This document shows positions 1 to 41,091 of a DNA stretch of 64,000 nt, piece by piece. The position numbers were made by a program, and so were the translations under genes. The stretch is taken from the IMG/VR virus record IMGVR_UViG_3300025693_000001; one strand, given 5' to 3'. Every line of letters starts with the position of its first letter. The stretch's first letter is position 1. A model generated the notes under the pieces. The model was not told where the DNA came from. It saw only the letters and a program-made list of their open reading frames with translations, and searched no databases. The DNA comes from a virus (taxonomy: Duplodnaviria; Heunggongvirae; Uroviricota; Caudoviricetes).

Positions 1-42
1 TATAACTATACCTAACAAATTTGGTATAGTCAACAAGTGTAT

Positions 43-345
43 TTATTCACTTCGACTACCGTTACACTTGGGAAACGCTGTACACCCATAAAACATGCCG
101 TACACTCCTTGTCGTTCTACTGTAACCCCACCACATTTTGGGCATTTACCTTCACCGCATGGTCCTCGTTCTGCTGGAGTCCATGGAGTCGATCCGGGAT
201 TACCAATAGTAGCTCCGTATTCATCGATAAGTCCTTCTTCATATTGTGTTGCTTGATCGGCATCTTTGAATCGTTCATAGTGATCCATTTCATCCATACT
301 AGCATCAATCGAAAAATCTGCCATTTCACCCACATTTATCTCCAA
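43..345 (-). CDS. Small Cys-rich protein with a C-terminal topoisomerase-type C4 zinc ribbon
   Basis: C-terminal CPKCGGVTVERQGVYGMFYGCTAFPKCNG matches the zf-C4 topoisomerase-type pattern (CPxCG...GCxxxPxC). Confidence 0.4.
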   Translation of the reverse strand: MEINVGEMADFSIDASMDEMDHYERFKDADQATQYEEGLIDEYGATIGNPGSTPWTPAERGPCGEGKCPKCGGVTVERQGVYGMFYGCTAFPKCNGSRSE

Positions 346-725
346 TCGTTTGGGTTATAGATCTCGGAGTCGCGGGAAAAATCTTCCCACAGTTCTTTTT
401 TGTTTTGTTTTGTTATTACATATACCATAACTCTGCATATGATATACGCAAGAATGATGCCAATAATCCATCCAAAAACAGACATAAACTGAGCTGTACT
501 ATCCATCAGGACGTCCGTTTAGCAACTTCTCGTTTGATCGATTCCTCTTCCTCATCCATATCGGGTTCCCCCTCTGGATTCATAGATTCACCATACCACT
601 CCCAGTTATCAACACCACCCACCTCTAATCGTCTTAGTTGTTCTTGGGCAATTCGCAGTTGGGTGTATTCACTTTTCAATATTGTTACAGTATCTTGGTT
701 AGACATTATTTATCCTGTGTTATTG

Positions 726-816
726 TGGCGAAAGAAGGAGGATTCGAACCCCAAGCCGGTTAAGGCTCCACATGACTTCCAATCATGGTCAATCACCGGA
801 GACTGAATCATCTTTC
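726..816 (-). tRNA. tRNA-Ser (anticodon GGA), class II with long variable arm, CCA encoded
   Basis: Hand fold of the reverse complement gives a 7-bp acceptor stem (one T-T mismatch), D-loop with GG, anticodon stem CATGA/TCATG with loop TTGGAAG, a 17-nt variable arm, T-loop GGTTCGAATCC, and discriminator G followed by CCA. Confidence 0.7.
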
Positions 817-1274
817 AAAAAATTGGTGTACAGGTCAAGGAATTGAACCTTAGTTACTTGTCGACCACCTACCACCAGCATTGGTGGTACCCGTACGTTG
901 TGTGTTAATATAACCCTTCGCTGTATAACACTTTACCGTTACCGGAATTGCGAATCATATCCAACGGTTGTCCGCTAGCGGTGGCTACGGCAAGAGCTTC
1001 AGTTCTATCCATAAACACACCAAACTGATCAACAAATCCCTGATAACCTTTTTCCGGTTTGCATTCGTGTCCACCAGCTTTAACAGCTTTGATTATATCG
1101 TTCATATTCTTATCGTGGTGTCTAGCGCTCATGATGATGAGATCACCATATTTATTTGCGGCACAGACAACTTTTCGTATCGGTTTCATAATATTTATTA
1201 TACATTAGAGTTCATACAACAATCAACGGTTTTGATTGTTGCGATAAATACAGTACTACATTACGGAGCATATT

Positions 1275-1694
1275 ATGAAATTACTAGATTTAATCGAAGC
1301 AGCAAAACCAATAACATATGATAGAACCAAATATTACAAAAAAGGGTTTTGGTTGTATTCAAAAGAGTGGGATGTTGCAAAAATATTTCTTGCTGATGGT
1401 TGGGGAGAAAAAGTAGCCAAAAAGTTCAATGCTAAGTTCCACAAAGATTTTACTGTTGGTGGTGAAACCCCTCTTGTTTCAGGACTGAGTCCCGATATGG
1501 AACAAAAAATAGCACAATACATCAGTACTAGTAAATTTCACACCGCAACTGCATCATATGGTAAAAAAGGAACATCATCTGTTAGAAAACCTGGCATTGC
1601 CACTCGTGCTCAAATCAAATATATAGCTAAAGATACCCTGGATAAATTGTTATATATCCCATCAGAAGGTGTAATATATATCGGTAAATCATAA
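1275..1694 (+). CDS. Hypothetical protein (139 aa), the only plus-strand gene inside the first tRNA array
   Basis: ATG preceded by GGAG 8 nt upstream; a clean ORF lying between two minus-strand tRNAs. Confidence 0.5.
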   Translation: MKLLDLIEAAKPITYDRTKYYKKGFWLYSKEWDVAKIFLADGWGEKVAKKFNAKFHKDFTVGGETPLVSGLSPDMEQKIAQYISTSKFHTATASYGKKGTSSVRKPGIATRAQIKYIAKDTLDKLLYIPSEGVIYIGKS

Positions 1695-1697
1695 AAC

Positions 1698-1790
1698 TGG
1701 AGGAAGGAGGAGGATTCGAACCCCAAACCCGATCAAGGGTTCCACATGATTTCAAGTCATGGTGCGTCACCGGAGAAGCAATCACCTTCC
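1698..1790 (-). tRNA. tRNA-Ser (anticodon TGA), class II, CCA encoded
   Basis: Paralogue of the 726-816 tRNA with the same T-arm (GGAGGATTCGAACCCC). Anticodon stem CATGA/TCATG with loop CTTGAAA gives TGA; long variable arm present. Confidence 0.7.
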
Positions 1791-2175
1791 AATTGTTATT
1801 TCTTATTATCCTCAGGTTTCTTCTTTTTTGCAACCTGATTCAATTGTTCTTTTTGTTTGGTGGAATCCACATTACGTTCCCACTCTGCCAATCTTACTGG
1901 ATCTATCATCCGATAACCACACAAGCATTTGGTCTGATGTCATCATCCGTCCAACCATTTGCGCGTTCTTCGGCGGTTAACGTCATTTTCCCAACTTCAA
2001 TACCATCGTCGGTTTCTTCGTACCCTTCAACATCGATCCAATCCAGGTTAACAAATCGATATCCATTACCTTCATCATCGATTGATGTGATGACCGGAAG
2101 GTCTTGTGGAAGTTCTTGTAATCGTTTAACTACATCTGCTACGGTTGTGTCTGTCATGGTTATCCTTATTTAATT

Positions 2176-2253
2176 TGGTACCCCACCTCGGAGTCGAACC
2201 GAGATACACGAACTTCTAAAGATCGTAGCTTTACCAATTTGCATTAGCGGGGC
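2176..2253 (-). tRNA. tRNA with anticodon TAG (Leu-type anticodon) but a short variable loop, A73, CCA encoded
   Basis: Acceptor GCCCCGC/GTGGGGT pairs fully (with G-U); T-arm CTCGG-TTCGACT-CCGAG; anticodon loop TTTAGAA with one mismatch in the stem. Confidence 0.6.
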
Positions 2254-2726
2254 ATTATGTTACGTTTTTTATTCCCATATGTGTTTGTTTGACTGTGACA
2301 ATTCGGACACAAAAAACGTAAATTGTGTTCACTGTTATTGTTCCAATTCCCATCTCTATGGTCAATATGTAGTGTAATTGGTTTTCCGTTGTATATGGAT
2401 CCAACATGACACCCTTCACACTCTACGAGTCTACCAACTTCTACCAACGCCCGCATTAGTTGGTTGCGGCGAGGTCGATTCATCGATTCTGTATACACCA
2501 ATATATCAGCCGCGGTTTTCTTCGTGGTCTTTGGTATTCCACGCGCCCAAGCTTGTCCAGTAAAATGGGTTCGATCTATACCCAACCTATCGATTTTGTT
2601 GCGTAAACAACATATAGATCCACCAACGATTTTGGTATATCCCAACAATCTCATCGTTTGAGATATACTAACTGATTTGGCTACGGCGGCAGCTAGTTCC
2701 CGATCCGTATATTTATATTTGCTCAT
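2244..2726 (-). CDS. HNH homing endonuclease (paralogue A)
   Basis: C-terminal ...ITLHIDHRDGNWNNNSEHNLRFLCPNCHSQTNTYGNKKR is an HNH/His-Me finger; about 90% nucleotide identity to 3925-4404 over roughly 150 nt. The more likely start is the internal ATG at 2726; the ORF track extends to 2744. Confidence 0.75.
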   Translation of the reverse strand: MSKYKYTDRELAAAVAKSVSISQTMRLLGYTKIVGGSICCLRNKIDRLGIDRTHFTGQAWARGIPKTTKKTAADILVYTESMNRPRRNQLMRALVEVGRLVECEGCHVGSIYNGKPITLHIDHRDGNWNNNSEHNLRFLCPNCHSQTNTYGNKKRNIMPR

Positions 2727-2786
2727 GTGGTATTTATGGTACATGTTATTAGTAACATGACCTCTACCAATTGGGTCACGGGAGCA

Positions 2787-2996
2787 TTATTTATTCTTTT
2801 GGTTCAGATAGTCAGATAGTGATACTAGATCTGTCCGTTCCAATTCTAATGGTTGTATTGTATCATTAATTGCTTGTAACATCAACACTGGATCTTCACA
2901 TACGTGACATAAGTACCGTCCATTGTGAAAAAAAGGATTACCTGCATGGCCACCACCAGCACCACATTCAGGACAAACATATCTAGCCATCGTCAC
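2787..2996 (-). CDS. Small zinc-ribbon protein
   Basis: CPECG...CHVCEDP CxxC...CxxC pair. Confidence 0.4.
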   Translation of the reverse strand: MTMARYVCPECGAGGGHAGNPFFHNGRYLCHVCEDPVLMLQAINDTIQPLELERTDLVSLSDYLNQKNK

Positions 2997-3652
2997 TTAA
3001 TACCCATATATTTAACAGCAAGTTCAATATCTTCTTTATCCACACCATGCTGCTCAATTATGGTGGCCAGATCATCCATGAATGGAGCTAGTGAGTTGAT
3101 TTTATCATCCCAAGCATCATACCGAGATTGCATTTGTGATTCCATATATTCCATATTAGTACGCTATCCATCTGTGTGGTTTTGGTCTAAATCTACCAAA
3201 TGACACACCATGCATCTTGGCAAATCGACTACGTTTAGCTACTCTAGCTGTTGAGAAAATGCTTTGTCTGTTGTATTTAACTCGCAAGCGAGCTTGTACC
3301 CCACCCATCATCCCTAATATGTGTAGTAAGTCGGAATCCACTTCTCTACGAATCTCTTCAGCGAGTGTGGATGCCAACTCATCTTCCAGATTGAGTCCAT
3401 ATTGAACACTTAACATATCGCGATCTTCCACAGTGTACGTTGCTTTTAGCACCCGTAACATTGGTGGATAACCAAATAGCGCTCGAATTGCGTTTATTAA
3501 ACTTTTTAGGGTATTGTTCATTTGGTTTTTTGTAGTTCGCATATGATGTGGTTGCATGTTGTGGTGATGCTAAGCAATATACCTTCCATTTCCACTAACA
3601 GTTTTGATACATCGTTGTTGTTGAATTTCATCCTACCACTCTCATTGTTGTT

Positions 3653-3729
3653 TGGTACCTGACCTCAGAGTCGAACTGAGAATCACCAAATTTTGAATCT
3701 GGTTGCTTTACCAATTAGCATAGTCAGGC
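3653..3729 (-). tRNA. tRNA with anticodon CAA (Leu-type anticodon), class-I shape, A73, CCA encoded
   Basis: Fully paired acceptor (GCCTGAC/GTCAGGT), D-stem TGCT/AGCA with loop AATTGGTAA, anticodon stem CCAGA/TTTGG with loop TTCAAAA, T-loop TTCGACT; paralogue of the 2176-2253 tRNA. Confidence 0.6.
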
Positions 3730-3924
3730 ATTATTATCGCATTAATATTGATAGACATTTTGGTGGGGCTTTGTTGTATCCACCAAAACGATCATACATA
3801 TGTATGATCCTCCACCTACTCATTTTCAATCCTGGCCCATAATATCGCCGTCTACCACGATGGTGCCGGACTTCAATACGGAACAGTTTTATGTTTTTTG
3901 CTTTGTGTTTGTATCTAATCATAA

Positions 3925-4404
3925 TTAGGACTTGGTTCGTTTTTTATTACCATAGTTATCAGTTTGGCTGTGACAATTCGGACACAAAAAGCGTAAATTA
4001 TCAGCAGTGTTATTACGCCAATTACCATCTTTATGATCGATTTGTAATAGTAGTGGTTTGTTGTTGTATGTGTCAAATACTAAACACTCCTCACACTGAA
4101 CCGATCTGCCGACATCTACTAAAGCGCGAAATAGTTGGTATCGCTGTGTTCGTCTGGTTGAGTTGTGGGTATGTATCAGTATATCCGCAGTACATTTCTT
4201 TTTATTGCTAGATGTTCCCTTTGCCCACGATTTGCCCGTGAAGTGTGATCGATCGATACCAAGCCTATCCAGTCGGTTACGAAAACAACAAACAGACCCT
4301 CCTTCTATTTTCTCGTATCCTAGCGCTCGCATCGCACCAGATAAACTATACGATGCTGTCACCGCTTCTGTTATTTCTTCTGTCGTGAATTTGTATTTAG
4401 TCAT
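3925..4404 (-). CDS. HNH homing endonuclease (paralogue B)
   Basis: ...LLQIDHKDGNWRNNTADNLRFLCPNCHSQTDNYGNKKR; collinear with the 2244-2744 protein along its whole length. Confidence 0.75.
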   Translation of the reverse strand: MTKYKFTTEEITEAVTASYSLSGAMRALGYEKIEGGSVCCFRNRLDRLGIDRSHFTGKSWAKGTSSNKKKCTADILIHTHNSTRRTQRYQLFRALVDVGRSVQCEECLVFDTYNNKPLLLQIDHKDGNWRNNTADNLRFLCPNCHSQTDNYGNKKRTKS

Positions 4405-4472
4405 GGTGTATTTATGTCATACCCAATTGTTGAGTATTTACACCTTTACTAGTTTGCCTACAGCGACATTTG

Positions 4473-4544
4473 TGTTCTCGAGGGGAGTCGAACCCCCATT
4501 CACAGATTGAAAGTCTGTTGACCTAACCATTAGTCGACGAGAAC
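4473..4544 (-). tRNA. tRNA-Glu (anticodon TTC), no encoded CCA
   Basis: Acceptor CGAGAAC/GTTCTCG; anticodon stem ACAGA/TCTGT with loop CTTTCAA; T-arm GGGGG-TTCGACT-CCCCT. Confidence 0.65.
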
Positions 4545-4549
4545 ATGTT

Positions 4550-4627
4550 TGGTACTCCCAGTCGGATTCGAACCGACACATAAACTGATTTTAAGTCAGC
4601 CACCTCTACCAATTGGGTTATGGGAGC
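4550..4627 (-). tRNA. tRNA with anticodon TAA (Leu-type anticodon), class-I shape, A73, CCA encoded
   Basis: Acceptor GCTCCCA/TGGGAGT; anticodon stem GCTGA/TCAGT with loop CTTAAAA; T-arm GTCGG-TTCGAAT-CCGAC. Confidence 0.6.
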
Positions 4628-4969
4628 AATGTTTATTTTATACAGTCAACCATTTTTATATTACCACAACGTTTACATTGCAAATTGTATCTGGTACCAA
4701 TTGAGCCAGTATTGTGGTCTGTCAATACCGTTTCTGATATAACTTCCCAAACATGACAATGACCATACCATAAAAATTCAAACAAAGCTATCACATATTT
4801 CGATATCCCGTATACGTGCAATACCCACAATGTATATCCAACATTGGTGGATTTGATGTTTTCATTAATAATGGTGAACTATCAAATAGTTCAGCTCCAC
4901 ATTTAGGACACTCAAACCCATTCAATTTTGGTTGATTGCTTTGGTGTTGTATTCTACCATCGGGAGTGT

Positions 4970-5554
4970 TTAATTTTTTAAGTGTCGTATACTGCTTGCG
5001 TTTTTCCATTTGGTTATATATTCATCAATTGTTGGTTGAACCAACTCACGAAACCTACTGTGGACATAAGCATGATGGGTTGGGCACATTGGTATCAAAT
5101 TACTCGGATCGTTGTTGCTGTGATTACCATCGTTGTGATGTACAGCCACTATGTTGGTTTCCCCACACACCACACAACTTTTGTCGTGATAAGCAAAACA
5201 CAACGTTTGATAACGATTCCCCTGAAAGTTACCATTATTCAATCCAGTGCGGAAGTGTTTATTAGAACAACTACGACTACAAGTACCTTTTGACGTTTTG
5301 TAGTTCTTTACTGGTTTTGAGCATACCACACACCGCATTAAATTTGTTGGATTTAAAAAACACAACCGTTCATGATTCGTTATATTTCCGATTGTAGTGG
5401 CATGGAAACAGTATCGGCAACGATACTTCGTTTGATTCACATCACCCCAACTACCACTCATGTGGCTCACAAACGATCGTAAGTTTTTATAAACGCGAGC
5501 GTTGTGGGGGCTTGTGTATGTGCCATCCTTGTTTTTGTGAATATCATATTTCAT
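4970..5554 (-). CDS. HNH endonuclease
   Basis: ...VAVHHNDGNHSNNDPSNLIPMCPTHHAYVHSRF HNH motif plus several N-terminal CxxC pairs. Confidence 0.7.
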   Translation of the reverse strand: MKYDIHKNKDGTYTSPHNARVYKNLRSFVSHMSGSWGDVNQTKYRCRYCFHATTIGNITNHERLCFLNPTNLMRCVVCSKPVKNYKTSKGTCSRSCSNKHFRTGLNNGNFQGNRYQTLCFAYHDKSCVVCGETNIVAVHHNDGNHSNNDPSNLIPMCPTHHAYVHSRFRELVQPTIDEYITKWKNASSIRHLKN

Positions 5555-5558
5555 TTAG

Positions 5559-5631
5559 TCTCTCTGGCGGGATTTGAACCCACAATAAAACGTCCCAAAC
5601 GTTTCATGTTACCAGATTACATTACAGAGAG
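5559..5631 (-). tRNA. tRNA-Pro (anticodon TGG), no encoded CCA
   Basis: Acceptor CTCTCTG/CAGAGAG; D-stem ATGT/ACAT; anticodon stem AAACG/CGTTT with loop TTTGGGA; T-loop TTCAAAT. Confidence 0.65.
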
Positions 5632-5718
5632 AAAGATGATTGCTAATCAGAAAGAGGCGCGCATTATTGATTAGCATATCAAATTCGACATCACCACGTT
5701 AATGGTGTGCCTTGCCTT

Positions 5719-5787
5719 TTGTGCTAGGAGGAATCGAACCTCCGTCCCTCGCCCAATGCGAGTCCCTTACCATTAGAATATAGCAGA
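5719..5787 (-). tRNA. tRNA-like element (possibly degenerate; Gln-TTG or Pro-TGG anticodon if functional)
   Basis: Perfect T-arm GGAGG-TTCGATT-CCTCC and an acceptor pairing with one mismatch, but only 69 nt and no clean anticodon or D-arm in the hand fold. Confidence 0.35.
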
Positions 5788-5844
5788 CTTTGTTTGATTA
5801 TACACTACAGTTTTGATGTAGTCTACAATCGAATTTAAAAAATT

Positions 5845-5930
5845 TGGTGGATCCGGTAGGAATCGAACCTACAATCTCATAAGAGCACTGGGTTACAGCC
5901 AGCTAAGCACACCACCTGCTCAACGAATCC
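5845..5930 (-). tRNA. tRNA-Tyr (anticodon GTA), class II, CCA encoded
   Basis: Acceptor GGATTCG/CGGATCC; anticodon stem GCTGG/CCAGT with loop CTGTAAC; 14-nt variable arm; T-arm GTAGG-TTCGATT-CCTAC. Confidence 0.7.
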
Positions 5931-5945
5931 ATGGTGTTATTTTTG

Positions 5946-6018
5946 CGGAACAGACGGGAGTTGAACCCGCACTTTCTTCCTTGACAGGGAAGTGCACTAC
6001 CAGTTATGCTACTGCTCC
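5946..6018 (-). tRNA. tRNA-Asp (anticodon GTC), no encoded CCA
   Basis: Acceptor GGAGCAG/CTGTTCC; D-stem GCAT/GTGC; anticodon stem CTTCC/GGAAG with loop CTGTCAA; T-loop TTCAACT. Confidence 0.7.
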
Positions 6019-6026
6019 GGTATTTC

Positions 6027-6215
6027 TTATGCCCAGGCTAATCCGCGTTGAGTTAAATACTTCTCAACTTTGCTATATTCACGAGGACGAAACTTTTCTT
6101 TTTTTACAATTTCAGTATTACTCAACGCTGCAATGTTACGTACTGGATGTTTGTTACCATTTTTATCCAACTTCTTTTTCTTGCCGCTTTGATCTCTTGC
6201 TCCGTACTTTACCAT
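6027..6215 (-). CDS. Small lysine-rich basic protein (62 aa)
   Basis: ATG start and clean ORF immediately downstream of the sigma70-like promoter, leading into the tRNA array. Confidence 0.35.
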   Translation of the reverse strand: MVKYGARDQSGKKKKLDKNGNKHPVRNIAALSNTEIVKKEKFRPREYSKVEKYLTQRGLAWA

Positions 6216-6244
6216 TTGTGTTCCTTAGTTAGTGTTAAGTAGAT

Positions 6245-6274
6245 ATTATATACTGTTGTTTTGTTGTTTGTCAA
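6245..6274 (-). promoter_or_regulatory. Consensus sigma70 (early-type) promoter reading toward the tRNA array
   Basis: On the minus strand: TTGACA, an 18-nt spacer, then TATAAT (forward tgtcaa at 6269-6274, attata at 6245-6250). Confidence 0.5.
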
Positions 6275-6514
6275 CCGTTAATTTTAATTCCGACGGGTTA
6301 GCAGAATATACTGTTTGTTAGTGAAGGTAAGTATAACTTGGAACATTGTCAAAGTCTACCTTCAAATTCTTTTCAGGGGATGTCCTATTGAACATTGCTC
6401 CCGTGTCTGGTAAATGTGATTACTACCTCACATTCAAGTTACATTATAAGCTTCGGGGGAATTTCAACCACATGCGGATCGCTTATAATCCTTTTAAGTC
6501 CTTTGGTATTCAGA

Positions 6515-6553
6515 CTATTTAAACCAAAAAAAGGCCGGTGAATCACTTCTACC
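6515..6553. terminator. Bidirectional rho-independent terminator
   Basis: AAAAAAA-GGCCGGT-(11-nt loop)-ACCGGCC-TTTTGT; a T-run follows the hairpin on both strands. Confidence 0.6.
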
Positions 6554-7544
6554 GGCCTTTTGTATTAAGTTGTTTTAACTTCGATCTACGTTAAACTGAT
6601 TCCGTAGATAACTTACAAAAGGCGGTGGAAGGATAATCTCGTTCCAGCGACCACAAATCTTCTTCACAGAAAGATAGCGTCCCGAATAAAGGGCCCTGTA
6701 TGCTATACTGTGATGATAATAATGTGTTCATTGTCTTTTGTTCGCTTTAAATTGTTATGTGTTAATTGTACTACTATTTACTAGTAAGTCAACTAAACAT
6801 TAAAAAAAGTTGTAACCTGATGGTTCTATTGGATTTTCTTCTTCCATTTTTTAGCCATTGCCTGAATGTTTTAGTGACACTTTGGCTAAAGCTTTGTTTA
6901 TCCGGTCGTTGTATGCCCGTAATTTGTTCAGGTTACCGAGAATTCGAGAGAAGTGTTTTTTTCTGTCATCTCCAGGTTTCAATTTTGATACGAGGCTTAG
7001 TCCTTTTTTGGCTGCTCCGTATCGTTTCTCTGCATCATCCATGATACGTTGAAGGTTTGATAGTAAGCTATCGGGTACGTCTGGTATGCTAACATCCTCG
7101 CACATCATTACGATTTGCTCTGATGATGTTATGATATCATTAAACACCTGTTGTAATTCTTGTTCAATTAATGATGAGTGTAGTTGTTGTAGCATGTGTA
7201 GTCCTTATTGGTGCGCTTGATTGCGTAGCGTATCATTTGTTGTTGCCAGTTTTGATGTTCGCGTTCTGTGTGTAATGACAGAATGCGTGTCCCTTGGTTT
7301 GTTAAACGTTACACCTTTCTGATCTGTAGGATCCCACTTACCATAACATTTATCCCCCTCGGGACTCAATGCCACGATTTGTTCATCATCCGTTTGGTGT
7401 GCTTCTGCGTTTGGATAACCGAATTTAACATCATTTACCCAATTTTCGTATGAATCAAACCACAACGTTTTCTTGGGTCTTGGTTTGGGTGGTTTAGGAG
7501 GCTTCTTTTTTACAGCAGCCTCCATAAGATCACAAACTTTCATG

Positions 7545-8075
7545 TTATATTACTTTGTTGCCGTGACCAACTTGCATCAAGTCAGCAGCAAACTTATCCA
7601 TTTTAGTTGGGCTATCAGCCATGCCTTCCGCTTTAGCAAGGTGCTGTTCTGTTGTACCTTTGAATCTAAACGACTTAATTAAACTAATAAGTGCAGTCTT
7701 TTTAGCGTCACCTGTAGCTGCCCACACTTTTTGTGCTGCTGCATCTAGTTGCTTGAAGTCACCACCTTTTTTTGCTTCCACCAATATGTATTTCGTTGGT
7801 GTGTGATGTTCTATTTCCGCTTCTGTAATACCAGCTAATTCCATTATCCGGTTTTGCGTCAAATGGTGGTCATCCCCAATATCTGGGTTAACACTTTCCG
7901 ATATTGCTGTAGGTGCGTTTACGGCGCTTTGTTCTTCGGTTGCTTCGATTAAATGGCGATCACCTGATTCCGTGATCCCAGCTAACTCTTTTAATCTATC
8001 TTGTTCCATTATTTTACTTCCTGCATATAGCTTTTTAGTGAACGAGTAGTTCCACCATTGGTTAAAAACTTCCAC
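7545..8075 (-). CDS. Hypothetical protein with internal tandem repeat (RLKELAGITES... / RIMELAGITEAE...)
   Basis: ORF with a repeated ELAGITE motif; overlaps the start of the next gene. Confidence 0.35.
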   Translation of the reverse strand: MEVFNQWWNYSFTKKLYAGSKIMEQDRLKELAGITESGDRHLIEATEEQSAVNAPTAISESVNPDIGDDHHLTQNRIMELAGITEAEIEHHTPTKYILVEAKKGGDFKQLDAAAQKVWAATGDAKKTALISLIKSFRFKGTTEQHLAKAEGMADSPTKMDKFAADLMQVGHGNKVI

Positions 8076-9553
8076 ACATCGTTGGGGATTTTGTGTAGCA
8101 TAGGTCCCATTAGTGTTTGTGCAAATATTTGTGCTTCTTTGAAATCGTGTATAGTTCCAGCTTTTAATTTATCATGTAAGTCTTCGAACGCGTTCGCCAA
8201 GTCGTTATAAAAATTGGCAGCATCACGATTAGATGAGTCCAACCGTTTGGCTTCTTTTCGAGCTTGATCGATTTCAGTTTTCAACTGGCTAGTGATCTCT
8301 GCTGGGATTTTCATCTTGTTCGATTGATCGTCTTGCTTTGTATCCAACTGGCTTGGGCTTTCGTCGTTATTTGTTCCACGTTTATCCCATACCTGTTCAT
8401 CGTTGGCACTACCATCTGTAACATTTACCGGCTTATCTTTGTCTTCTTCGTAGTTAGTATATTTGTTGTCAACGTAATAATGCATAGACTCTTTCACGTG
8501 TCCTTTGAAATCGAACGAACCGAATTTATGCGTTTGACCAGCTACACGTAGTTTTTTGGCTAATTCATCATCTTTATCCAACTCAACGTCATAGAAATCA
8601 TCCGATGCGTGGCGTGATGGTTGATCTTTAAAAAAGCTACCATTCGGTTTGGCTTCACTTTTGATGGTACCGTTACCCATCGATGTGCGAACACGATCAC
8701 CGACTTCATATTTACCATTCGATGCACCCTCAGTAACAGCCTCTTCTTTGTTTTCTTTTTTTGGTGTATCTGTGGATGAAGTTGATTGTGCTTTTGAATT
8801 TTTATAATTGGATGACGTCAACACATAATCTTCGATTGGTGACAACGACCCACCAGCACGTGCTTTTTGGTCAGCTTTTTTCAATAGTGCATCTTTTTCT
8901 TTTTGTTCCATGGCATCTAGTTTTTTGGCCATACGAGAGTCATTTGATGTCGTAGCTTCGGAGTTGGATTTAATTGAAATGATTAACCCCTTACCCCCTT
9001 TCATTTGTGCTAGTCTAGCTTTTGCTTTATCTTCTGCCTCTTGACGAGTATCAGCGATAATATCAAAACCATCCGTATCACGATGCTTCACTTTTACTGT
9101 CCAACGAGACTCGCTCAGTTGTTCATTTTCATCCAGACTCATTTCGGAATGGAATGCAGATGACTCTTCTTCCTCAGCCTTTGCTTTTGCGGCTTGTTTC
9201 TCAGCTTTTAGGTGAGTCTGTTGGTCTTTGTCAAACGCATCCAGCAAGTGTATCAGTCCAGTACTACCATTATCACCTTCTAACACATCTTCCAATTCAG
9301 CGATCATGTGTGGAATATCTCCACCAAAATCAGTAGCTGGAATTTTGTCTAATGCTTTGATTGCATTTTGTAGATGTTTGATCGCACTTTTTAATCCAGC
9401 AACTTTACCGGTTAGTGACTTCTGGTCTTTTGCTGTTAAGTCTGATCGACGCAGTGGTGTTTTTCTAGCCTCTGTTACGGCAAGTCGTTCTAAAGAAGGA
9501 TCCATTCTGATACCAGAAAGTAATCTCATTTTGTTAAGTTCATGCATGTGCAT
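8009..9553 (-). CDS. Large (514 aa) low-complexity K/E/D-rich protein
   Basis: Long ORF with a charged low-complexity central region; no recognisable catalytic motif. Confidence 0.45.
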   Translation of the reverse strand: MHMHELNKMRLLSGIRMDPSLERLAVTEARKTPLRRSDLTAKDQKSLTGKVAGLKSAIKHLQNAIKALDKIPATDFGGDIPHMIAELEDVLEGDNGSTGLIHLLDAFDKDQQTHLKAEKQAAKAKAEEEESSAFHSEMSLDENEQLSESRWTVKVKHRDTDGFDIIADTRQEAEDKAKARLAQMKGGKGLIISIKSNSEATTSNDSRMAKKLDAMEQKEKDALLKKADQKARAGGSLSPIEDYVLTSSNYKNSKAQSTSSTDTPKKENKEEAVTEGASNGKYEVGDRVRTSMGNGTIKSEAKPNGSFFKDQPSRHASDDFYDVELDKDDELAKKLRVAGQTHKFGSFDFKGHVKESMHYYVDNKYTNYEEDKDKPVNVTDGSANDEQVWDKRGTNNDESPSQLDTKQDDQSNKMKIPAEITSQLKTEIDQARKEAKRLDSSNRDAANFYNDLANAFEDLHDKLKAGTIHDFKEAQIFAQTLMGPMLHKIPNDVWKFLTNGGTTRSLKSYMQEVK

Positions 9554-13718: not shown

Positions 13719-14831
13719 TCATTTTGTTTCCGTTTTTTCGTTTGAAATACCGTAGTTCTTCCAATTTTTCTTCATGGAAGCCTTGTAATCTACGGGACGT
13801 TGCATGTACAGGTTCATCACCAAGCCGAACTCTTGTTTGGTTAACTCTTGACCAGCTGTAATTGCGAAATCTTTGCGATCGTATCGTTCATTTGTTGCAA
13901 AAAAAGTTTCAACGGTGGAAACCATGTGGTTGTATCGTGTATCAACAAATTCTTGCATTTCATCGATAAGCACGATCGCTTGAGGGTCATCATAGAACAT
14001 TGAGCGCATATCGTCAACAGCATCATCAACACAAGCATCGAATAATCTACGTGGGCAGTTAATCGAATCTTTCGTGCGGTGCAACGACAAGTATTTTTCT
14101 GTTTTCAATTTGAACCACAAACCATCTGTAGTAATACAAACGAAGCCTTCAATGCTATCTGTCATGCGTGGTACAGATTCAACGAACGATACCACATCAT
14201 CTGTTTTTACGTTGGGGTATGAGTAGTCGATGAACGTTGACATAGAGGCAGGGCGATACAATCCTGTGGCAGTATCGCGGATATTCAATACAATCAATGC
14301 TGACTGCTCGTATCCTAACACGATTCGATTGTCGGGTCCCACCCATTCCAAGTTTACAGTGTGACCGTTTAGGGTGAAGTGCAACAAGTCCATTTTGAAG
14401 TCGATGTTCTCGTATTTGTTCAACCACTCCATAGCATCAATCGCTTGGACAGAAGCTAACGATCCTTTGGATTTTAGCCGCATTTCACTGCCATGCATGT
14501 ACGTTGAGATTAACGAACCATCCGACTTAACCATAATTCGATCAACAGTTGTTAGGTCAACATCCATAGTAAATGGATTTTCGTGCAAATTGTAGAATTT
14601 GTGCATAGGAAGTGCAGCTAATCTAATGGCATCCCCACATTCATCCAATTCAAACATAATACCTCGACATTCTTGCGCTGACGGTAAACAAAACAACGAA
14701 TATGATGCTAATCGATAGTTGAAAATTCGGTATTTAATGCGTTCGTGTGTGTGATCAGCGAAAAAGAAGGCATCGGTGGTTGATGTTAGGGCTATCAATT
14801 GATCGTATAAAGTTTGTTGGTATTGGTTCAT
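13719..14831 (-). CDS. rnlA: RNA ligase 1 (T4 RnlA-like, Rnl1 family)
   Basis: 371 aa from the ATG at 14831 (T4 RnlA is 374 aa). Nucleotidyltransferase motif I as MVKSDGSLISTYM (KxDGSL, compare T4 KEDGSL). The ORF-track start at 14867 is TTG. Confidence 0.75.
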   Translation of the reverse strand: MNQYQQTLYDQLIALTSTTDAFFFADHTHERIKYRIFNYRLASYSLFCLPSAQECRGIMFELDECGDAIRLAALPMHKFYNLHENPFTMDVDLTTVDRIMVKSDGSLISTYMHGSEMRLKSKGSLASVQAIDAMEWLNKYENIDFKMDLLHFTLNGHTVNLEWVGPDNRIVLGYEQSALIVLNIRDTATGLYRPASMSTFIDYSYPNVKTDDVVSFVESVPRMTDSIEGFVCITTDGLWFKLKTEKYLSLHRTKDSINCPRRLFDACVDDAVDDMRSMFYDDPQAIVLIDEMQEFVDTRYNHMVSTVETFFATNERYDRKDFAITAGQELTKQEFGLVMNLYMQRPVDYKASMKKNWKNYGISNEKTETK

Positions 14832-14876
14832 TAGTAAATATCCACATATGATTAAAAACAATAACAATACAACAAT

Positions 14877-25065: not shown

Positions 25066-26249
25066 TCTATCTAAATTTGTTTTTTTCACAGTCGCTAAAA
25101 TTTATCCACTTTACGTATTTGTGTTTACATTTTGGACACACAACCATATCAGGTTTTTGTCTCCATCGAAATGAGCATTCACTGCAATGATATATCGCTT
25201 CCATTTATTACCACCAAAAGTACCTATAAATTAAACCGTCGGTGAAGATCTCCTTCACTGACTTGTTGATTTTTTATCGCTAATGCAGCTCTTGCATCCT
25301 CGGCCGCTAACAACAATTTTACTGATTCCAGATGTTCTGTTGTCAATTCGATATCACGCATATCTGATAACGCTTTTTTGTACTTCTTGTTTGTAACCCC
25401 AAAATCTCTGGCCATGTTGCCCTTAAAACTCTCAAAAACTAATACTATGCAATGTATAATCGTCACCAGCTTTGATTCGCTCAGCTTGTGCCAATATGAC
25501 TGCTTGCTCTTTGGTTAACGCCCAAACTTCAACCTTTTGGGGGTCATATGATGAATCAGAAAACCACACTATAAATTGTATATGTTTCATTTAGTTATTT
25601 ATGAAAAGTCTAGGCCAAGAAAGTTAAATGTCTTGGCAATCATTTTTTTGATGTTAGCTTTAGTACCCTGTTCTACTTGGGTGACAATATCTGTAACATT
25701 TGCAACCATCACTTGTTCGCACCATTGGTGCATATCTGCATCTACCGATCGAAGAGACATGCTATATGTCCTCGTATCGAATTGTTGCTGATCGTCGGCG
25801 GTTTGAAAGACAACAACCCGTAAAACAGGATTGTGTTGTTCGGATCTATCAATCTCACTCTCTACTATAAACATTACCAATTATCCACGTCTGTTAAATC
25901 AAGTTTAGCACCACAAGCACACATAACCACAACTACAGTACCCAACCCCGTTGGAGTGAAGCTGTACGTTAGTCTACCACCTATTGCACCACAAGGATTA
26001 GAAGCTGTGCTCCCGTCATCGTAAAATTTGCATGTTTTGTTGTGATCTGCTAACCAATCATTAATCAGTAGCGTATCTGATGGTGACATATCAAATCCGG
26101 AGATTGTTCCTGGTTCTTTGTCACGATCTTTAGATACTGTGAACACCGTGGTGTTGCTATCATTCGGATCCAGCTCAAATACCGGCCACTTAAAAAAGTT
26201 GCCTATTCCAGGTTTTCTATCAGACATCATGCATCCTCGTTGTTTTTTG

Positions 26250-26317
26250 TGGAGGTACGGAGAGTTGAACTCCGCCCGGTTGGTTGCAAACCATCCAGTC
26301 TAACCGTATACACCCCC
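26250..26317 (-). tRNA. Short tRNA-like gene (68 nt; anticodon possibly TGC)
   Basis: T-arm CGGAG-TTCAACT-CTCCG and acceptor GGGGGTG/TACCTCC, but a truncated D-arm and a mismatch in the anticodon stem. It lies inside ORF 26227-26427, which is therefore probably spurious. Confidence 0.4.
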
Positions 26318-32955: not shown

Positions 32956-34050
32956 TCATAATAGGTCAGCAATAACTGCGATGCGAAGATTATCGATTGC
33001 TACACCAATTTGCTTACCTTCCAACGTATGATTGGCCGGTAGCGAACGAAACGATATAAATCTGATGAGGTTGTGTCCTTGTATAACGCGATCGTATATC
33101 AACGCCCCTGATGGATTCACTACACTAATGGCGGTTGAAATATCGTAGAGCAATTCAGAAGTTTTTATTGTTTTTAAAAATCCCAATACAGCCTCTGGTG
33201 TTACATCGTTGCTCACCAATTGCATAGCATGTTGAAATGCTAGCACATCTCTGATTACTGATGATGGTGCTCGTAGCTTTGTTAATGCGTCAGAAGCATC
33301 CAGCATCGGTCCAAATAATATCATCATTCGGATGGCGGTGCTGCAATTTCTGAGTGTTGCCGATCTAAACGATTTTCCATTTGCTACCAGAGTTTTTGTT
33401 AGCCCTGGTATGATAACATTCAATGCTCCACATCGATGGAGTATCCAAAAAAACTCCATTGCATTTGGTAGCTCGATTGCTTTAGCTGTTTCAGCCCACA
33501 CACGTTCGGGTACCAAATGATCCACTTCACCGTTTGTGGTCATTGTTGTCATCAATTGCATTGTTTGTCTGGTTACATTGAACCCATACTTAGCGTTGAA
33601 TCTAGCTATTCGCAACAATCGTACTGGATCATCCGCGAAATGCTCGGATGTGTGTTTTAGTGTTTTGTTAACAAGATCTTGCAACCCACCACATGGATCG
33701 ATCACTTTGGTAACATCATGTGTTGTTTTGAACTGATCCCAATCAGATAGCAATACTGCCATTGAGTTAATAGTTAGGTCACGGCGTAGTAGATCTTCGG
33801 CTAAGGTAACGGTGGGATTGAAGTTCGTTTCGAACCCATTGTAACCGTTACCGTTTTTCCGCTCGGTTCTAGCTAATGCGTATTCATCGCCATTGGGGCA
33901 TAAGAATACGGGAAAGTCCGCTCCAACTTGCTTGTAGCCTAACGACTCCATCTCTTCGGGCGTTGAACCGACAACAACATAATCGATATCGTTTACTGGT
34001 TGGTTTAGTAAGGTGTCTCTAACGGCACCACCAACTACATATATTAACAT
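32956..34050 (-). CDS. cca: tRNA nucleotidyltransferase (CCA-adding enzyme, class II)
   Basis: N-terminal MLIYVVGGAVRDTLLNQPVNDIDYVVVG (GGxVRD...DxD head-domain signature); 364 aa. Confidence 0.85.
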   Translation of the reverse strand: MLIYVVGGAVRDTLLNQPVNDIDYVVVGSTPEEMESLGYKQVGADFPVFLCPNGDEYALARTERKNGNGYNGFETNFNPTVTLAEDLLRRDLTINSMAVLLSDWDQFKTTHDVTKVIDPCGGLQDLVNKTLKHTSEHFADDPVRLLRIARFNAKYGFNVTRQTMQLMTTMTTNGEVDHLVPERVWAETAKAIELPNAMEFFWILHRCGALNVIIPGLTKTLVANGKSFRSATLRNCSTAIRMMILFGPMLDASDALTKLRAPSSVIRDVLAFQHAMQLVSNDVTPEAVLGFLKTIKTSELLYDISTAISVVNPSGALIYDRVIQGHNLIRFISFRSLPANHTLEGKQIGVAIDNLRIAVIADLL

Positions 34051-37415: not shown

Positions 37416-37868
37416 CTATTTGTGTGATTTTAGATTGCGCAATGTTATTGTCGCATCAGTATCAAGTGTGTTTTCGTCATGGACGCTTTTTTTTGGCTTT
37501 TGCTCTGGTTGTATCTCTCGCTTGGGAAACATTTCTCTCCACCGTTTTTTGATTCGTGAGTTCGCTATGGCTACGTCATCATGCCATTCAAAATCAAAAA
37601 ATATCACCAAAGATGTGACTAATCCAATTACCAATCCTATCATGGCAATTATGATTTCGGGTTGTGTAAACCCTGATATCACTGTAAGCCTGTCGATATC
37701 CTTCGGGTTGTGTGGCACACTAACAACCAAACTGATAAATTGCCATCCAAAACTAATCCAGTACCCTATCACCGGAAAATGTCTACATTCGTTGTGATTT
37801 GACAATGCTACTATTGTGAACGTAATAGTAGTGAGAAAGATCATACATATAAAAAAAGTTAATATCAT
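37416..37868 (-). CDS. Membrane protein (150 aa, 3-4 TM)
   Basis: Hydrophobic helices; stop overlaps the NAMPT start region. Confidence 0.4.
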   Translation of the reverse strand: MILTFFICMIFLTTITFTIVALSNHNECRHFPVIGYWISFGWQFISLVVSVPHNPKDIDRLTVISGFTQPEIIIAMIGLVIGLVTSLVIFFDFEWHDDVAIANSRIKKRWREMFPKREIQPEQKPKKSVHDENTLDTDATITLRNLKSHK

Positions 37869-39289
37869 AATGTGTTAGTTGTGTTGAATCTAGTAGTACG
37901 AACTTCTTCCAATGTTGTAGTTCGCAATATTTTACCATTTAGGTACACAGGAGTGAGCATTTGTTCATCCATTGTTTTTGCCCCAATACAATCTGTTGTA
38001 AATTTACCTGCATCCGAACGGTATAACATTAATTGTCCACGTTTCGAGCGTTTACCGGTATCGGTAATCGGATCTTTGAATACATCGACCCACTCACCAT
38101 TGATAAATGCAGCACTTGCTTTATATGCCCATCTGCCAGTATCTCGATCCAGTTGTTGTAATAACGCACCACCCTGTCCAAATAATACATTTTCCGCACT
38201 GAACTTGTATCCAACCATCTTCGATAATATAGCATCAATGCTTTTGGTTGTAATGCCATCACCTTGCAACACTCGAACATGTTTTAGTACTTTATAGCCT
38301 TTGGTATTACGGATGTAACCGAATGCGGATTCAAGCAACAACATAATTTTTGTTACCACGGTTGCTGGATCACCACTATCAGGTCTGATAACTAGCCACC
38401 CATCACACTCAATAACCAATTCTTTCAGCTCATCACCCCAGATATGTTCAACTGCATTGAAAATATCGTACGAGTCGGATACCACAGAGAATGCGAAGAA
38501 CTTGTCTCCATATTGCTTCAACATATTGCGATATGCTTCTGTCTCCCGTCCCTTGCCCCATGTAGTAATTGAACTGTGTTCGGATGCTGGTACAGATTTT
38601 CCTGACATCTCATGCGAATATTGTCTATTTGCGTGAACTATACCTGGTACATTATCAGATCCTTTGAAATTTACCAAGTGTGCAGCTCCACCAATCATGG
38701 CACTTTCCAGTGAACTAACACCACGCGATCCGAAGTCATGCAACATAAAATCGATAGCATCTTCCTGTTCTTGTCCGGTTAAGTCGGATGTTGATTTCAT
38801 GTAACTCGTAATTACTTTTCTGGTGGTCCAGCTGTTGGTTGCTACTGTAGTTGGATACCACACACCACGTAATATCGATGGTTCGACGTGTGATGGTAAC
38901 CAAAAGCATTTCGGATCAGTATTAACGATAGTAACCAGTGCATTGCTTACCGGTACAACAGTACCTTCCGCCACCGACTTGATTTTTAACGGTAAGTAAC
39001 CGTTGTGCTCTTTTAATATGTGTTGCCATCCTTCTTTGTTGAATGGTTCACCATGAGCAGGCCAGAACAATTCCGCTTCGTCAATCATTTCTTGTGTGAT
39101 TGGTTTGCTCATGTATTCTTGTAAGAACATCTGCAATCCGAAGAATACCGTTTCATCGTATACCCCACCACGCGATTCAATATAGCAGTGAACATACTCA
39201 ATACCAGGGGGATACTGCAACCAATGGCTCGCTTTATATGAATCTGTGTTTAGTAAAATGTTAAAAACTGCGTGTTGTAAAAAGTTCAT
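37865..39289 (-). CDS. nadV: Nicotinamide phosphoribosyltransferase (NAMPT)
   Basis: Collinear with NAMPT across its whole length: FNILLNTDSYKASHWLQYPP, GWQHILKEHNGYLPLKIKSVAEGTVVP, LHDFGSRGVSS, AAHLVNFKGSDNVPG, IRPDSGDP, VLQGDGI, KRSKRGQL. Confidence 0.95.
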   Translation of the reverse strand: MNFLQHAVFNILLNTDSYKASHWLQYPPGIEYVHCYIESRGGVYDETVFFGLQMFLQEYMSKPITQEMIDEAELFWPAHGEPFNKEGWQHILKEHNGYLPLKIKSVAEGTVVPVSNALVTIVNTDPKCFWLPSHVEPSILRGVWYPTTVATNSWTTRKVITSYMKSTSDLTGQEQEDAIDFMLHDFGSRGVSSLESAMIGGAAHLVNFKGSDNVPGIVHANRQYSHEMSGKSVPASEHSSITTWGKGRETEAYRNMLKQYGDKFFAFSVVSDSYDIFNAVEHIWGDELKELVIECDGWLVIRPDSGDPATVVTKIMLLLESAFGYIRNTKGYKVLKHVRVLQGDGITTKSIDAILSKMVGYKFSAENVLFGQGGALLQQLDRDTGRWAYKASAAFINGEWVDVFKDPITDTGKRSKRGQLMLYRSDAGKFTTDCIGAKTMDEQMLTPVYLNGKILRTTTLEEVRTTRFNTTNTL

Positions 39290-40053: not shown

Positions 40054-41091
40054 TTACAACCGTCCCAACATATCAAAAATAATATCGTAGTGATCTTCAA
40101 ACAATTGATCGCGCATTTCTTTAATTGTGGTAATCGGAATCCATTGTGCTTTTTCAGCATCATCGCTTCCTTTCACTTTTGGAAGTCCACCTGGTGGTAA
40201 TTCGATACCGTAAGCATGTGTTATAGTTCTACCCCGTAAACTTCGGGCAGGGTGATCGTACACCTCTTGTATTTTGATATTCCCCCGTAATATAGGATCG
40301 GGCACCTTAATTTTAGTCTCTTCTCTTAATTCCCGTAACATAGCATCAATGAGAGTCTCGTTTGGATTTACAAACCCCCCGACAATAGCCCACAATCCTT
40401 TTCCTGGAGCCGATCGCCGTTTTACCAATAACACGTGTCCTGATTGCACCACTACAGCATCAACTGTCACGAAGATTGGTTCATATGGAGCTACAGCCCA
40501 AGCGGATTTATATTTCTGTATAAATTCATATTCATATTTCAGTTGTTCGAAGATAGGTTTTAGCTTCCATGCCAACAAGTATTCGTGAATAGCTTTTGGT
40601 AATGTTGGCATAACTTGTTTGCTGAAAAAGTCTGTTGAGTGTTCAAACAAAGCGACACGGATGTCAGTTGCGTGCAAGTCGTTGATATTAGGAACCTCAA
40701 CATGCTTCCATTGAGGAAACATTTTTAAGTAGAATGATGTGTCATCTTTAGTGTGACCGATCATTCCGATGTGGCTTCCTTCGGTGCTTAACGTTTCGAC
40801 CATTTTTTGGACTTGTGTAACCCAACGTTGATTGTTGTAAGCATCATCCGCAATGGGTGCAAATTGTACTCTGAGTTTTTCGCTATGAGATAGCGAGTTG
40901 CTGATCATTTCCGCACGTTCTTGCCATGACCAAGGATTTTTGATTGTCTTTGGTTGAAATGACGATCCGATTAGTATTATAACATTTTTGGATTGTTGTA
41001 ACGCAATTTTGATTGTTTCGATGTGTGCCAAGTGAGATGGCTGAAATCTACCAATGTACACGAGGTAGTCGTATTGTTCTTCTGTATTCAT
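40054..41091 (-). CDS. nadM: Bifunctional NMN adenylyltransferase / Nudix hydrolase (NadM-like)
   Basis: N-terminal YLVYIGRFQPSHLAHIE ((H/T)xGH-type nucleotidyltransferase motif); C-terminal Nudix box GGFVNPNETLIDAMLRELREETKI. Confidence 0.9.
   Translation of the reverse strand: MNTEEQYDYLVYIGRFQPSHLAHIETIKIALQQSKNVIILIGSSFQPKTIKNPWSWQERAEMISNSLSHSEKLRVQFAPIADDAYNNQRWVTQVQKMVETLSTEGSHIGMIGHTKDDTSFYLKMFPQWKHVEVPNINDLHATDIRVALFEHSTDFFSKQVMPTLPKAIHEYLLAWKLKPIFEQLKYEYEFIQKYKSAWAVAPYEPIFVTVDAVVVQSGHVLLVKRRSAPGKGLWAIVGGFVNPNETLIDAMLRELREETKIKVPDPILRGNIKIQEVYDHPARSLRGRTITHAYGIELPPGGLPKVKGSDDAEKAQWIPITTIKEMRDQLFEDHYDIIFDMLGRL

Follow-up and report, generated by a model that had tools for sequence, protein, structure and literature searches.

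Short-arm tRNA-Leu genes with UAG, CAA and UAA anticodons in a tailed-phage genome

Background

Leucine tRNA is listed as a class-II tRNA (PMC7609411), and its long variable arm is described as present in all organisms except animal mitochondria in the review of tRNA identity by Giege and Eriani (PMC9976931). According to the same review, the leucyl-tRNA synthetase (LeuRS) of E. coli relies crucially on A73 but not on the anticodon and not on the long variable arm: it requires A15-U48, G18G19, A20a and the tertiary pairs that join the D loop to the T loop, and tRNA-Leu variants devoid of the variable arm remain active with the enzyme. In human mitochondria, tRNA-Leu(UUR) is devoid of a long arm, and its recognition goes through A73 and A14 (PMC9976931). 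Here we describe three tRNA genes with UAG, CAA and UAA anticodons, located between positions 2176 and 4627 of a 64,000-nucleotide stretch of DNA from a virus of the Caudoviricetes (IMG/VR record IMGVR_UViG_3300025693_000001; the whole stretch is referred to as the window). All three are genuine tRNA genes with leucine anticodons, and the long extra arm typical of tRNA-Leu is missing from each.

Cellular counterparts occur in mycobacteria. The supplementary table of PMC11541572 lists five tRNA-Leu each for M. tuberculosis H37Rv and M. smegmatis; two of the five, Leu-1 (CAA) and Leu-4 (UAA), are class-I molecules of 74 nt, and Leu-2, Leu-3 and Leu-5 are long-armed. Leu-1 and Leu-4 are the only tRNA-Leu with CAA or UAA anticodons listed for the two species (PMC11541572), and the short form must therefore work as tRNA-Leu there. 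Behra et al. remark in passing that a tRNA-Leu(TAG) of a Mycobacterium tRNA cluster has a short variable loop (PMC6582537). Class-I tRNA-Leu of bacteria or phages is mentioned neither in the identity review (PMC9976931) nor in a review of non-canonical tRNAs (PMC7609411), and the L-array paper (PMC8421152) is equally silent on it. Searching the literature for phage class-I tRNA-Leu, we found passing remarks and no explicit description.

Class-I folds with leucine anticodons

ARAGORN predicts 14 tRNA genes in the window, every one on the minus strand. The three leucine genes are:

2176..2253, minus strand, tRNA-Leu(UAG), 78 nt with encoded CCA; ARAGORN; Rfam RF00005, 38.1 bits
3653..3729, minus strand, tRNA-Leu(CAA), 77 nt with encoded CCA; ARAGORN; Rfam RF00005, 55.6 bits
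4550..4627, minus strand, tRNA-Leu(UAA), 78 nt with encoded CCA; ARAGORN; Rfam RF00005, 57.2 bits

All three exceed the gathering score of RF00005 (tRNA; 29 bits), and each is aligned in the class-I register. The UAG gene is unlisted at the default Rfam filters and is reported, at 38.1 bits, in a more permissive run. An earlier sequence-only reading, made by hand, had placed three leucine-anticodon genes (TAG, CAA and TAA) here, and ARAGORN matches its coordinates and anticodons exactly. The fold it proposed, with 5-6 nt variable loops, A73 and a canonical T-arm, is reproduced by the ARAGORN drawings and the RF00005 alignment. Because Rfam aligns all three sequences in this same register above the gathering score, the manual fold is correct; the register errors that the reading had allowed for are ruled out, and neither program assigns a different anticodon or a long variable arm.

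As drawn by ARAGORN, each molecule is a class-I cloverleaf whose acceptor and T stems consist of 7 and 5 bp, respectively. The variable loops are UGUAU in the UAG tRNA (5 nt), UGAUU in the CAA tRNA (5 nt) and UUAUGU in the UAA tRNA (6 nt), and all three tRNAs have A73 as the discriminator. The anticodon loops read UUUAGAA, CUUAAAA and UUCAAAA in the UAG, UAA and CAA tRNAs, respectively, and the T loop is UUCGACU in the UAG and CAA tRNAs and UUCGAAU in the UAA tRNA. The UAG and CAA tRNAs also have the same D loop, AAUUGGUAAA, which in the CAA tRNA is written AAUUGGUAA where the D stem is taken as 4-bp; the D loop of the UAA tRNA is AAUUGGUAGA, next to a 3-bp D stem with C13.A22. Overall, the CAA and UAG tRNAs are 74% identical. 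In the UAG tRNA, the acceptor stem is set off from the D stem by an additional nucleotide, and there are mismatches at U10.U25 and U30.U40.

A canonical class-II tRNA-Leu has a variable stem-loop of at least 10 nt, a length that none of the three loops (5, 5 and 6 nt) approaches. No class-II, long-arm tRNA-Leu was found elsewhere in the window by ARAGORN or by a permissive Rfam scan of its whole length.

Comparison with E. coli, Felix O1 and cellular short-arm genes

We aligned the three window genes with MAFFT to E. coli K-12 leuZ (UAA), leuX (CAA) and leuW (UAG) and to the three corresponding genes of phage Felix O1 (Felixounavirus, AF320576). The alignment is collinear from end to end, with the sole exception of an 8-10 nt gap at the E. 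coli variable stem-loop, and its invariant columns include A14, A15, G18, G19, A20a, A22, U48 and A73. The E. coli genes have the same anticodons as the window genes and share with them a 3-bp D stem followed by a 13.22 mismatch, the D arm A14 A15 U16 Y17 G18 G19 Y20 A20a R21 A22, U48, A73 and the T loop. They differ in carrying a variable stem-loop of 13-15 nt, and thus a length of 85-87 nt, where the window genes have 5-6 unpaired nucleotides.

Felix O1 has the same short trio: its UAG and CAA species (78 nt each) and its UAA species (79 nt) are all class I and have A73, U48, an encoded CCA end and the leucine-type D loop. The tRNA-Leu(UAA) of Felix O1 is 82% identical to that of the window, and its tRNA-Leu(UAG) contains the same extra nucleotide and U10.U25 as the window UAG tRNA. 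Felix O1 differs in its enterobacterial host and in a CAA species with G1-C72. Moreover, the CAA and UAG tRNAs of the window are paralogues of each other (74%) and not close orthologues of the Felix O1 genes (52-58%).

Among cellular genes, Mycobacterium Leu-4 (UAA) and Leu-1 (CAA) and the tRNA-Leu(CAA) of Bifidobacteriaceae have the same class-I body of 74-75 nt with A73, the D arm CCCAAUUGG(U/C)AGAGG and a 5-nt variable loop ending in U. The chromosomal Leu-4 (UAA) of M. tuberculosis is 84% identical to the window UAA tRNA. These cellular genes differ in their housekeeping role, in leaving CCA unencoded and in having G-C at 1-72; the window genes, by contrast, belong to the tRNA cluster of a phage, with genes for HNH endonucleases lying in between. 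Bacterial tRNA arrays likewise hold class-I tRNA-Leu within dense tRNA clusters linked to HNH endonuclease genes, but with 20-25 tRNAs per 2-4 kb, whereas the window tRNAs are spread over ~30 kb with protein genes between them. Mitochondrial LeuRS is of the bacterial type. Animal mitochondrial tRNA-Leu(UUR) and tRNA-Leu(CUN) are class I and take their identity from A73 and A14 (PMC9976931), but they have degenerate D and T loops and weak stems, in contrast to the fully canonical elbows of the window tRNAs.

Leucine identity elements

The D arms of the three window tRNAs are of the bacterial tRNA-Leu type, with pairs at 10-25, 11-24 and 12-23. Next comes position 13.22, occupied by C.A in the UAA tRNA and by A.A in the UAG tRNA, whereas the CAA tRNA forms a U-A pair there. 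The D loops follow the order A14 A15 U16 U17 G18 G19 U20 A20a (A/G)21 A22. In each tRNA, the last base of the variable loop is U48, a partner for the A15:U48 Levitt pair, and the sequences predict that the two bases would pair in three dimensions. The T loops, UUCGA(A/C)U, supply the elbow partners U54, U55, C56 and A58. Every sequence element of the E. coli LeuRS identity set (PMC9976931) is thus found in all three genes.

Features expected of other identities are absent. In place of the G3.U70 of tRNA-Ala, the 3-70 pairs are C-G, C-G and U-A; in place of the long arm and G73 of tRNA-Ser, there are short loops and A73; and position 34 is U or C and not the G34 required by PheRS. None of the anticodons is a suppressor anticodon (CUA, UUA or UCA): the anticodons UAG, CAA and UAA read the codons CUA, UUG and UUA. 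All three tRNAs have a G1.U72 wobble, which we considered as a mark of a non-leucine tRNA and rejected. As E. coli leuZ carries G1.U72, the wobble is not foreign to tRNA-Leu, and it also occurs in about one-third of the short-arm family members described below.

The same phage offers an internal control. Its Tyr tRNA and two Ser-type tRNAs retain long arms, and arm loss is limited to the leucine tRNAs, for whose synthetase the arm is reportedly dispensable. Bacterial TyrRS reads the long arm. SerRS is reported to depend on it (PMC7609411).

A short-arm tRNA-Leu lineage in phages and bacteria

A blastn search of 50,697 phage records returned matches to the UAA tRNA in 359 of them. The listed full-length matches are ~76 nt long and mostly annotated as tRNA-Leu, and they come from Felix O1-like phages of Escherichia, Salmonella, Shigella and Citrobacter as well as from Streptomyces, Pseudomonas, Vibrio and Mycobacterium phages. 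Matches to the CAA and UAG tRNAs are weaker (75-81%) than those to the UAA tRNA. Mycobacteriophages of the cluster M type, Bongo and PegLeg among them, have weak homologues of the CAA tRNA that are annotated as tRNA-Leu, and homologues of the UAG tRNA carry the same annotation in Acinetobacter phages and in Mycobacterium phages, for example I3 and Alice. Two tRNA-Leu(tag) genes of 75-76 nt occur in Streptomyces phage MulchMansion.

A motif scan combining a leucine-type D loop, an NAR anticodon, class-I spacing and a T loop gave at least 120 loci in each of IMG/VR and GTDB. With the D-arm register fixed, there are at least 100 viral and at least 45 bacterial well-folded matches. Among the 145 listed matches, all anticodons are leucine anticodons (GAA does not occur), A73 is found in 144, U48 in all 145, and the variable loops are 5-7 nt long. 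In the 152 unfiltered unique sequences listed, the 20 stem positions hold 96% standard pairs, compared with 37-48% if the 3' partner is displaced by 1-3 nt, and at 18 of the 20 there are at least three Watson-Crick pair types. Since the stems covary in this way, the class-I fold of the short-arm family is supported. The three window genes fit the pattern of the lineage in every respect: leucine anticodon, leucine-type D arm, variable loop of 5-7 nt, U48 and A73.

The bacterial matches occur in two settings, dense tRNA arrays and solitary chromosomal genes. A Micromonospora array (our record L159, 360-2391) comprises 20 tRNAs, a short tRNA-Leu included, and a cyanobacterial array (L173, 3980-7813) has 25 tRNAs with four short tRNA-Leu (taa, gag, caa and tag). 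The solitary setting is exemplified by a conserved 75-nt class-I tRNA-Leu(CAA) of Bifidobacterium, Gardnerella, Alloscardovia and relatives, which in Bifidobacterium and Gardnerella adjoins the pyruvate kinase gene and in B. apis also that of DNA polymerase I. The records with this Bifidobacteriaceae gene are:

L135, 2724-2798, tRNA-Leu(CAA)
L170, 5011-5085, tRNA-Leu(CAA)
L140, L154, L166, L168, L187, L188 and L191, tRNA-Leu(CAA)

Blastn found no match to the UAA tRNA in 5,426 E. coli genomes, which suggests that E. coli has no native homologue of it at the sensitivity used. A megablast search of window positions 1-8000 against phages returned four short tRNA matches only and no close phage relative, and an IMG/VR search with the 514-aa open reading frame (ORF) at 8009-9553 found no related locus.

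Short-arm tRNA-Leu is thus a known and ordinary form, annotated in GenBank for two decades and native to Actinobacteria. The sequence-only reading was right that the three genes lack the arm usual for tRNA-Leu, and only partly right to regard this as unusual, since class-I tRNA-Leu is common in phages, bacterial arrays and Actinobacteria. The sequence databases contradict the reviews cited above by revealing a coherent short-arm lineage in many phages, in bacterial arrays and in mycobacteria. This lineage represents a natural confirmation that bacterial LeuRS can do without the arm, and the mild surprise is how scantly the tRNA literature acknowledges it. Neither annotation pipelines nor first-pass readers should take short tRNA-Leu genes for errors. 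For the window itself, the consequence is small: its genes can be annotated as tRNA-Leu(UAG), tRNA-Leu(CAA) and tRNA-Leu(UAA), with no special flag.

Codon demand and genomic context

The leucine codons of 80 window ORFs are UUG (30%), UUA (28%), CUA (17%), CUG (11%), CUU (9%) and CUC (5%). The codons UUA, UUG and CUA, for which the sequence-only reading had proposed a usage comparison, are accordingly the ones these ORFs use most, together accounting for 75% of leucine codons. The G+C content of the window is 40%. Other tRNAs of the phage also fit its favoured A-ending codons, with CCA at 56% alongside tRNA-Pro(UGG) and AAA at 78% alongside tRNA-Lys(UUU).

A Pfam scan identified four genes for tRNA care and NAD salvage, and three ORFs for HNH-type homing endonucleases are interleaved with the tRNA genes:

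13719-14867, minus strand, T4 Rnl1-type RNA ligase
32956-34050, minus strand, CCA-adding/poly(A) polymerase-family nucleotidyltransferase
37865-39289, minus strand, nicotinamide phosphoribosyltransferase family (NAMPT)
40054-41091, minus strand, NMNAT-Nudix fusion
2244-2744, minus strand, HNH-type homing endonuclease ORF
3925-4404, minus strand, HNH-type homing endonuclease ORF
4970-5554, minus strand, HNH-type homing endonuclease ORF

The phage therefore carries genes of both tRNA care (the Rnl1-type ligase and the CCA-adding-type enzyme) and NAD salvage (NAMPT and NMNAT-Nudix). No Pnkp partner was recognised beside the Rnl1-type ligase. The large ORFs of the window also include a Band-7 protein and a NAD-dependent DNA ligase; among phages, the ligase is matched best by the jumbo phages Phosso, XacN1 and Atu_ph07 (33-39% identity). 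As no ORF exceeds 658 aa, a LeuRS-sized gene is absent from the window, and no synthetase domain was detected in the 39 ORFs scanned against Pfam. With its stop codon, the HNH ORF at 2244-2744 runs into the UAG tRNA gene at the latter's 5' end. This ORF and the one at 3925-4404 look paralogous, with the same C-terminal HNH motif.

Function of the three genes and alternative explanations

Very probably, the trio encodes functional, ordinary leucine isoacceptors belonging to the short-arm lineage, which would be charged by the host LeuRS and would supply UUA, UUG and CUA decoding to this phage of 40% G+C. From the observed sequences, folds, identity elements, homologies and codon match, we infer expression, charging and decoding as follows. 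The genes would be transcribed from the minus strand together with the other tRNA genes of the region, yielding tRNAs in which the CCA end is already encoded. The host LeuRS would leucylate all three through A73 and the elbow formed by the D and T loops. By standard wobble rules, the UAA tRNA would decode UUA and UUG, the CAA tRNA UUG, and the UAG tRNA CUA and related CUN codons. The three would thus be relatives of normal tRNA-Leu with a trimmed arm and not retargeted tRNAs of another identity. Short-arm leucine isoacceptors that LeuRS reads by A73 and tertiary shape were among the options of the sequence-only reading, and this option is supported by the presence of the full E. coli element set and by the finding that close homologues are the only UUA/UUG isoacceptors listed for mycobacteria.

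Several points weigh against this explanation. We found no report in the literature of aminoacylation, expression or decoding for any phage class-I tRNA-Leu. Arg921 of M. tuberculosis LeuRS has been proposed to contact the long arm of tRNA-Leu(CAG) (PMC3561953), and because of this proposed contact, independence from the arm may fail in some bacteria. The motif survey was anchored on D- and T-loop motifs and an NAR anticodon, and its 100% figures describe that subset and are no census; the codon table derives from 80 mechanically called ORFs. Within the trio, the UAG tRNA is the weakest, with its two U.U mismatches, extra nucleotide and score of 38 bits, and its base 37 is A, in contrast to the G37 usual among CUN-reading tRNA-Leu.

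Loss of the arm could alternatively be an anti-defence adaptation, in which class-I tRNAs carrying leucine would evade class-II-specific toxins or nucleases of the host and replace the attacked host tRNA-Leu. This is compatible with the favoured explanation. The window does encode tRNA repair functions (the Rnl1-type ligase at 13719-14867 and the CCA-adding-type nucleotidyltransferase at 32956-34050), arm loss in this phage is confined to leucine, and a prophage terminase tRNase that fragments tRNA-Leu has been reported (PMC11610961). However, the short form is a native housekeeping tRNA-Leu of mycobacteria and Bifidobacteriaceae, and a phage-specific explanation is therefore unneeded. No known toxin selects tRNA-Leu through its arm, MenT3 shows no preference for tRNA-Leu, and no feature of the window ties the three genes to a defence system. 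We regard such an adaptation as unlikely, and give an equally small chance to the related idea that the short body persists in phages by hiding their leucine tRNAs from host defence enzymes that detect class-II tRNAs through the variable arm, with LeuRS still able to charge them, and that the trio, the Rnl1-type ligase and the CCA-adding enzyme would form a counter-defence kit and not a simple codon-supply set. It is very unlikely, too, that homing-endonuclease traffic in the tRNA cluster has left one or more of the trio behind as a decaying copy with no function. The UAG gene would be the likeliest case, given its U10.U25 and U30.U40, its extra nucleotide, its 38.1 bits and its omission at the default Rfam filters, along with the HNH stop codon overlapping its 5' end and a truncated Leu-type tRNA nearby (2737-2785). 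Yet the extra nucleotide and U10.U25 also occur in Felix O1 tRNA-Leu(UAG), and since they are common to both phages they are conserved features and not recent damage; on this ground, we largely rejected the UAG gene as a pseudogene. The UAG tRNA has complete acceptor (7/7) and T (5/5) stems and retains A73, U48 and CCA, and CUA makes up 17% of leucine codons.

Charging of the trio by a synthetase other than LeuRS, with recoding of UUA, UUG and CUA in phage genes, is the least probable of the alternatives, and we consider it highly improbable. A tRNA of another identity whose anticodon had shifted would be expected to combine a class-I body with a leucine anticodon, and reassignment of CUN codons has precedents in yeast mitochondria (PMC7609411). 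The sequence-only reading had likewise named another synthetase as a possibility, which finds no support in the tRNAs: they have no G3.U70 (Ala), no G73 or long arm (Ser) and no G34 (PheRS), and their D arm is leucine-type, with A20a and the 13.22 mismatch. The Lys, Ile, Met and Thr enzymes, which read the anticodon, are not known to accept A35, nor is ValRS known to accept A or G at position 36. Against recoding also stand the close homologues that are the only CAA/UAA tRNA-Leu listed for mycobacteria, the upper ORF length of 658 aa in the window and the lack of a synthetase domain among the 39 Pfam-scanned ORFs.

Other tRNA-like sequences in the window

The window contains further sequences of tRNA type:

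730-816, minus strand, Ser-anticodon tRNA (GGA)
1702-1790, minus strand, Ser-anticodon tRNA (UGA)
826-900, minus strand, aberrant tRNA-like sequence
2737-2785, minus strand, truncated Leu-type tRNA, 49 nt
5719-5787, minus strand, aberrant tRNA-like sequence
26247-26317, minus strand, tRNA-sized match to the tmRNA model

The two Ser tRNAs were missed by ARAGORN. Their minimum-energy folds have an 8-bp acceptor stem with one U.U, a 4-bp T stem, a long variable arm and an extended D stem with a 6-nt loop. In these predicted folds, their shape is the 8/4 arrangement resembling tRNA-Sec and allo-tRNA; against the Rfam tRNA-Sec model they score 46.5 bits (1702-1790) and 33.9 bits (730-816), compared with a gathering score of 47. 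Inspected by eye, the tRNA-Ser(UGA) of Felix O1 may also have an extended acceptor stem.

In the truncated Leu-type tRNA, the 5' strand of the acceptor stem and the D arm are almost identical to those of the UAA tRNA. The D arm is followed by a 6-bp hairpin and then UACCA, and there is no T arm or 3' acceptor strand. The sequence overlaps the start of the HNH ORF at 2244-2744 and is probably the scar of an endonuclease-driven rearrangement. A 133-aa ORF on the minus strand between the CAA and UAG tRNA genes (3156-3557) matches the T4 Gp23 major capsid profile over residues 148-195 only (E = 1.2e-06); it looks, from this match, like a piece of a capsid gene left stranded among the tRNA genes.

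Two of the remaining sequences are aberrant in the anticodon arm. The one at 5719-5787 scores 41.6 bits with RF00005, but its anticodon loop spans 5 nt, or alternatively 7 nt with A33. In the one at 826-900, the acceptor and T arms are well formed and a 7-bp hairpin is present, but the anticodon arm is missing. The match to the tmRNA model at 26247-26317 scores 29.1 bits, below gathering, and is uncalled by ARAGORN; it may be another divergent tRNA-like gene, situated in the second tRNA cluster.

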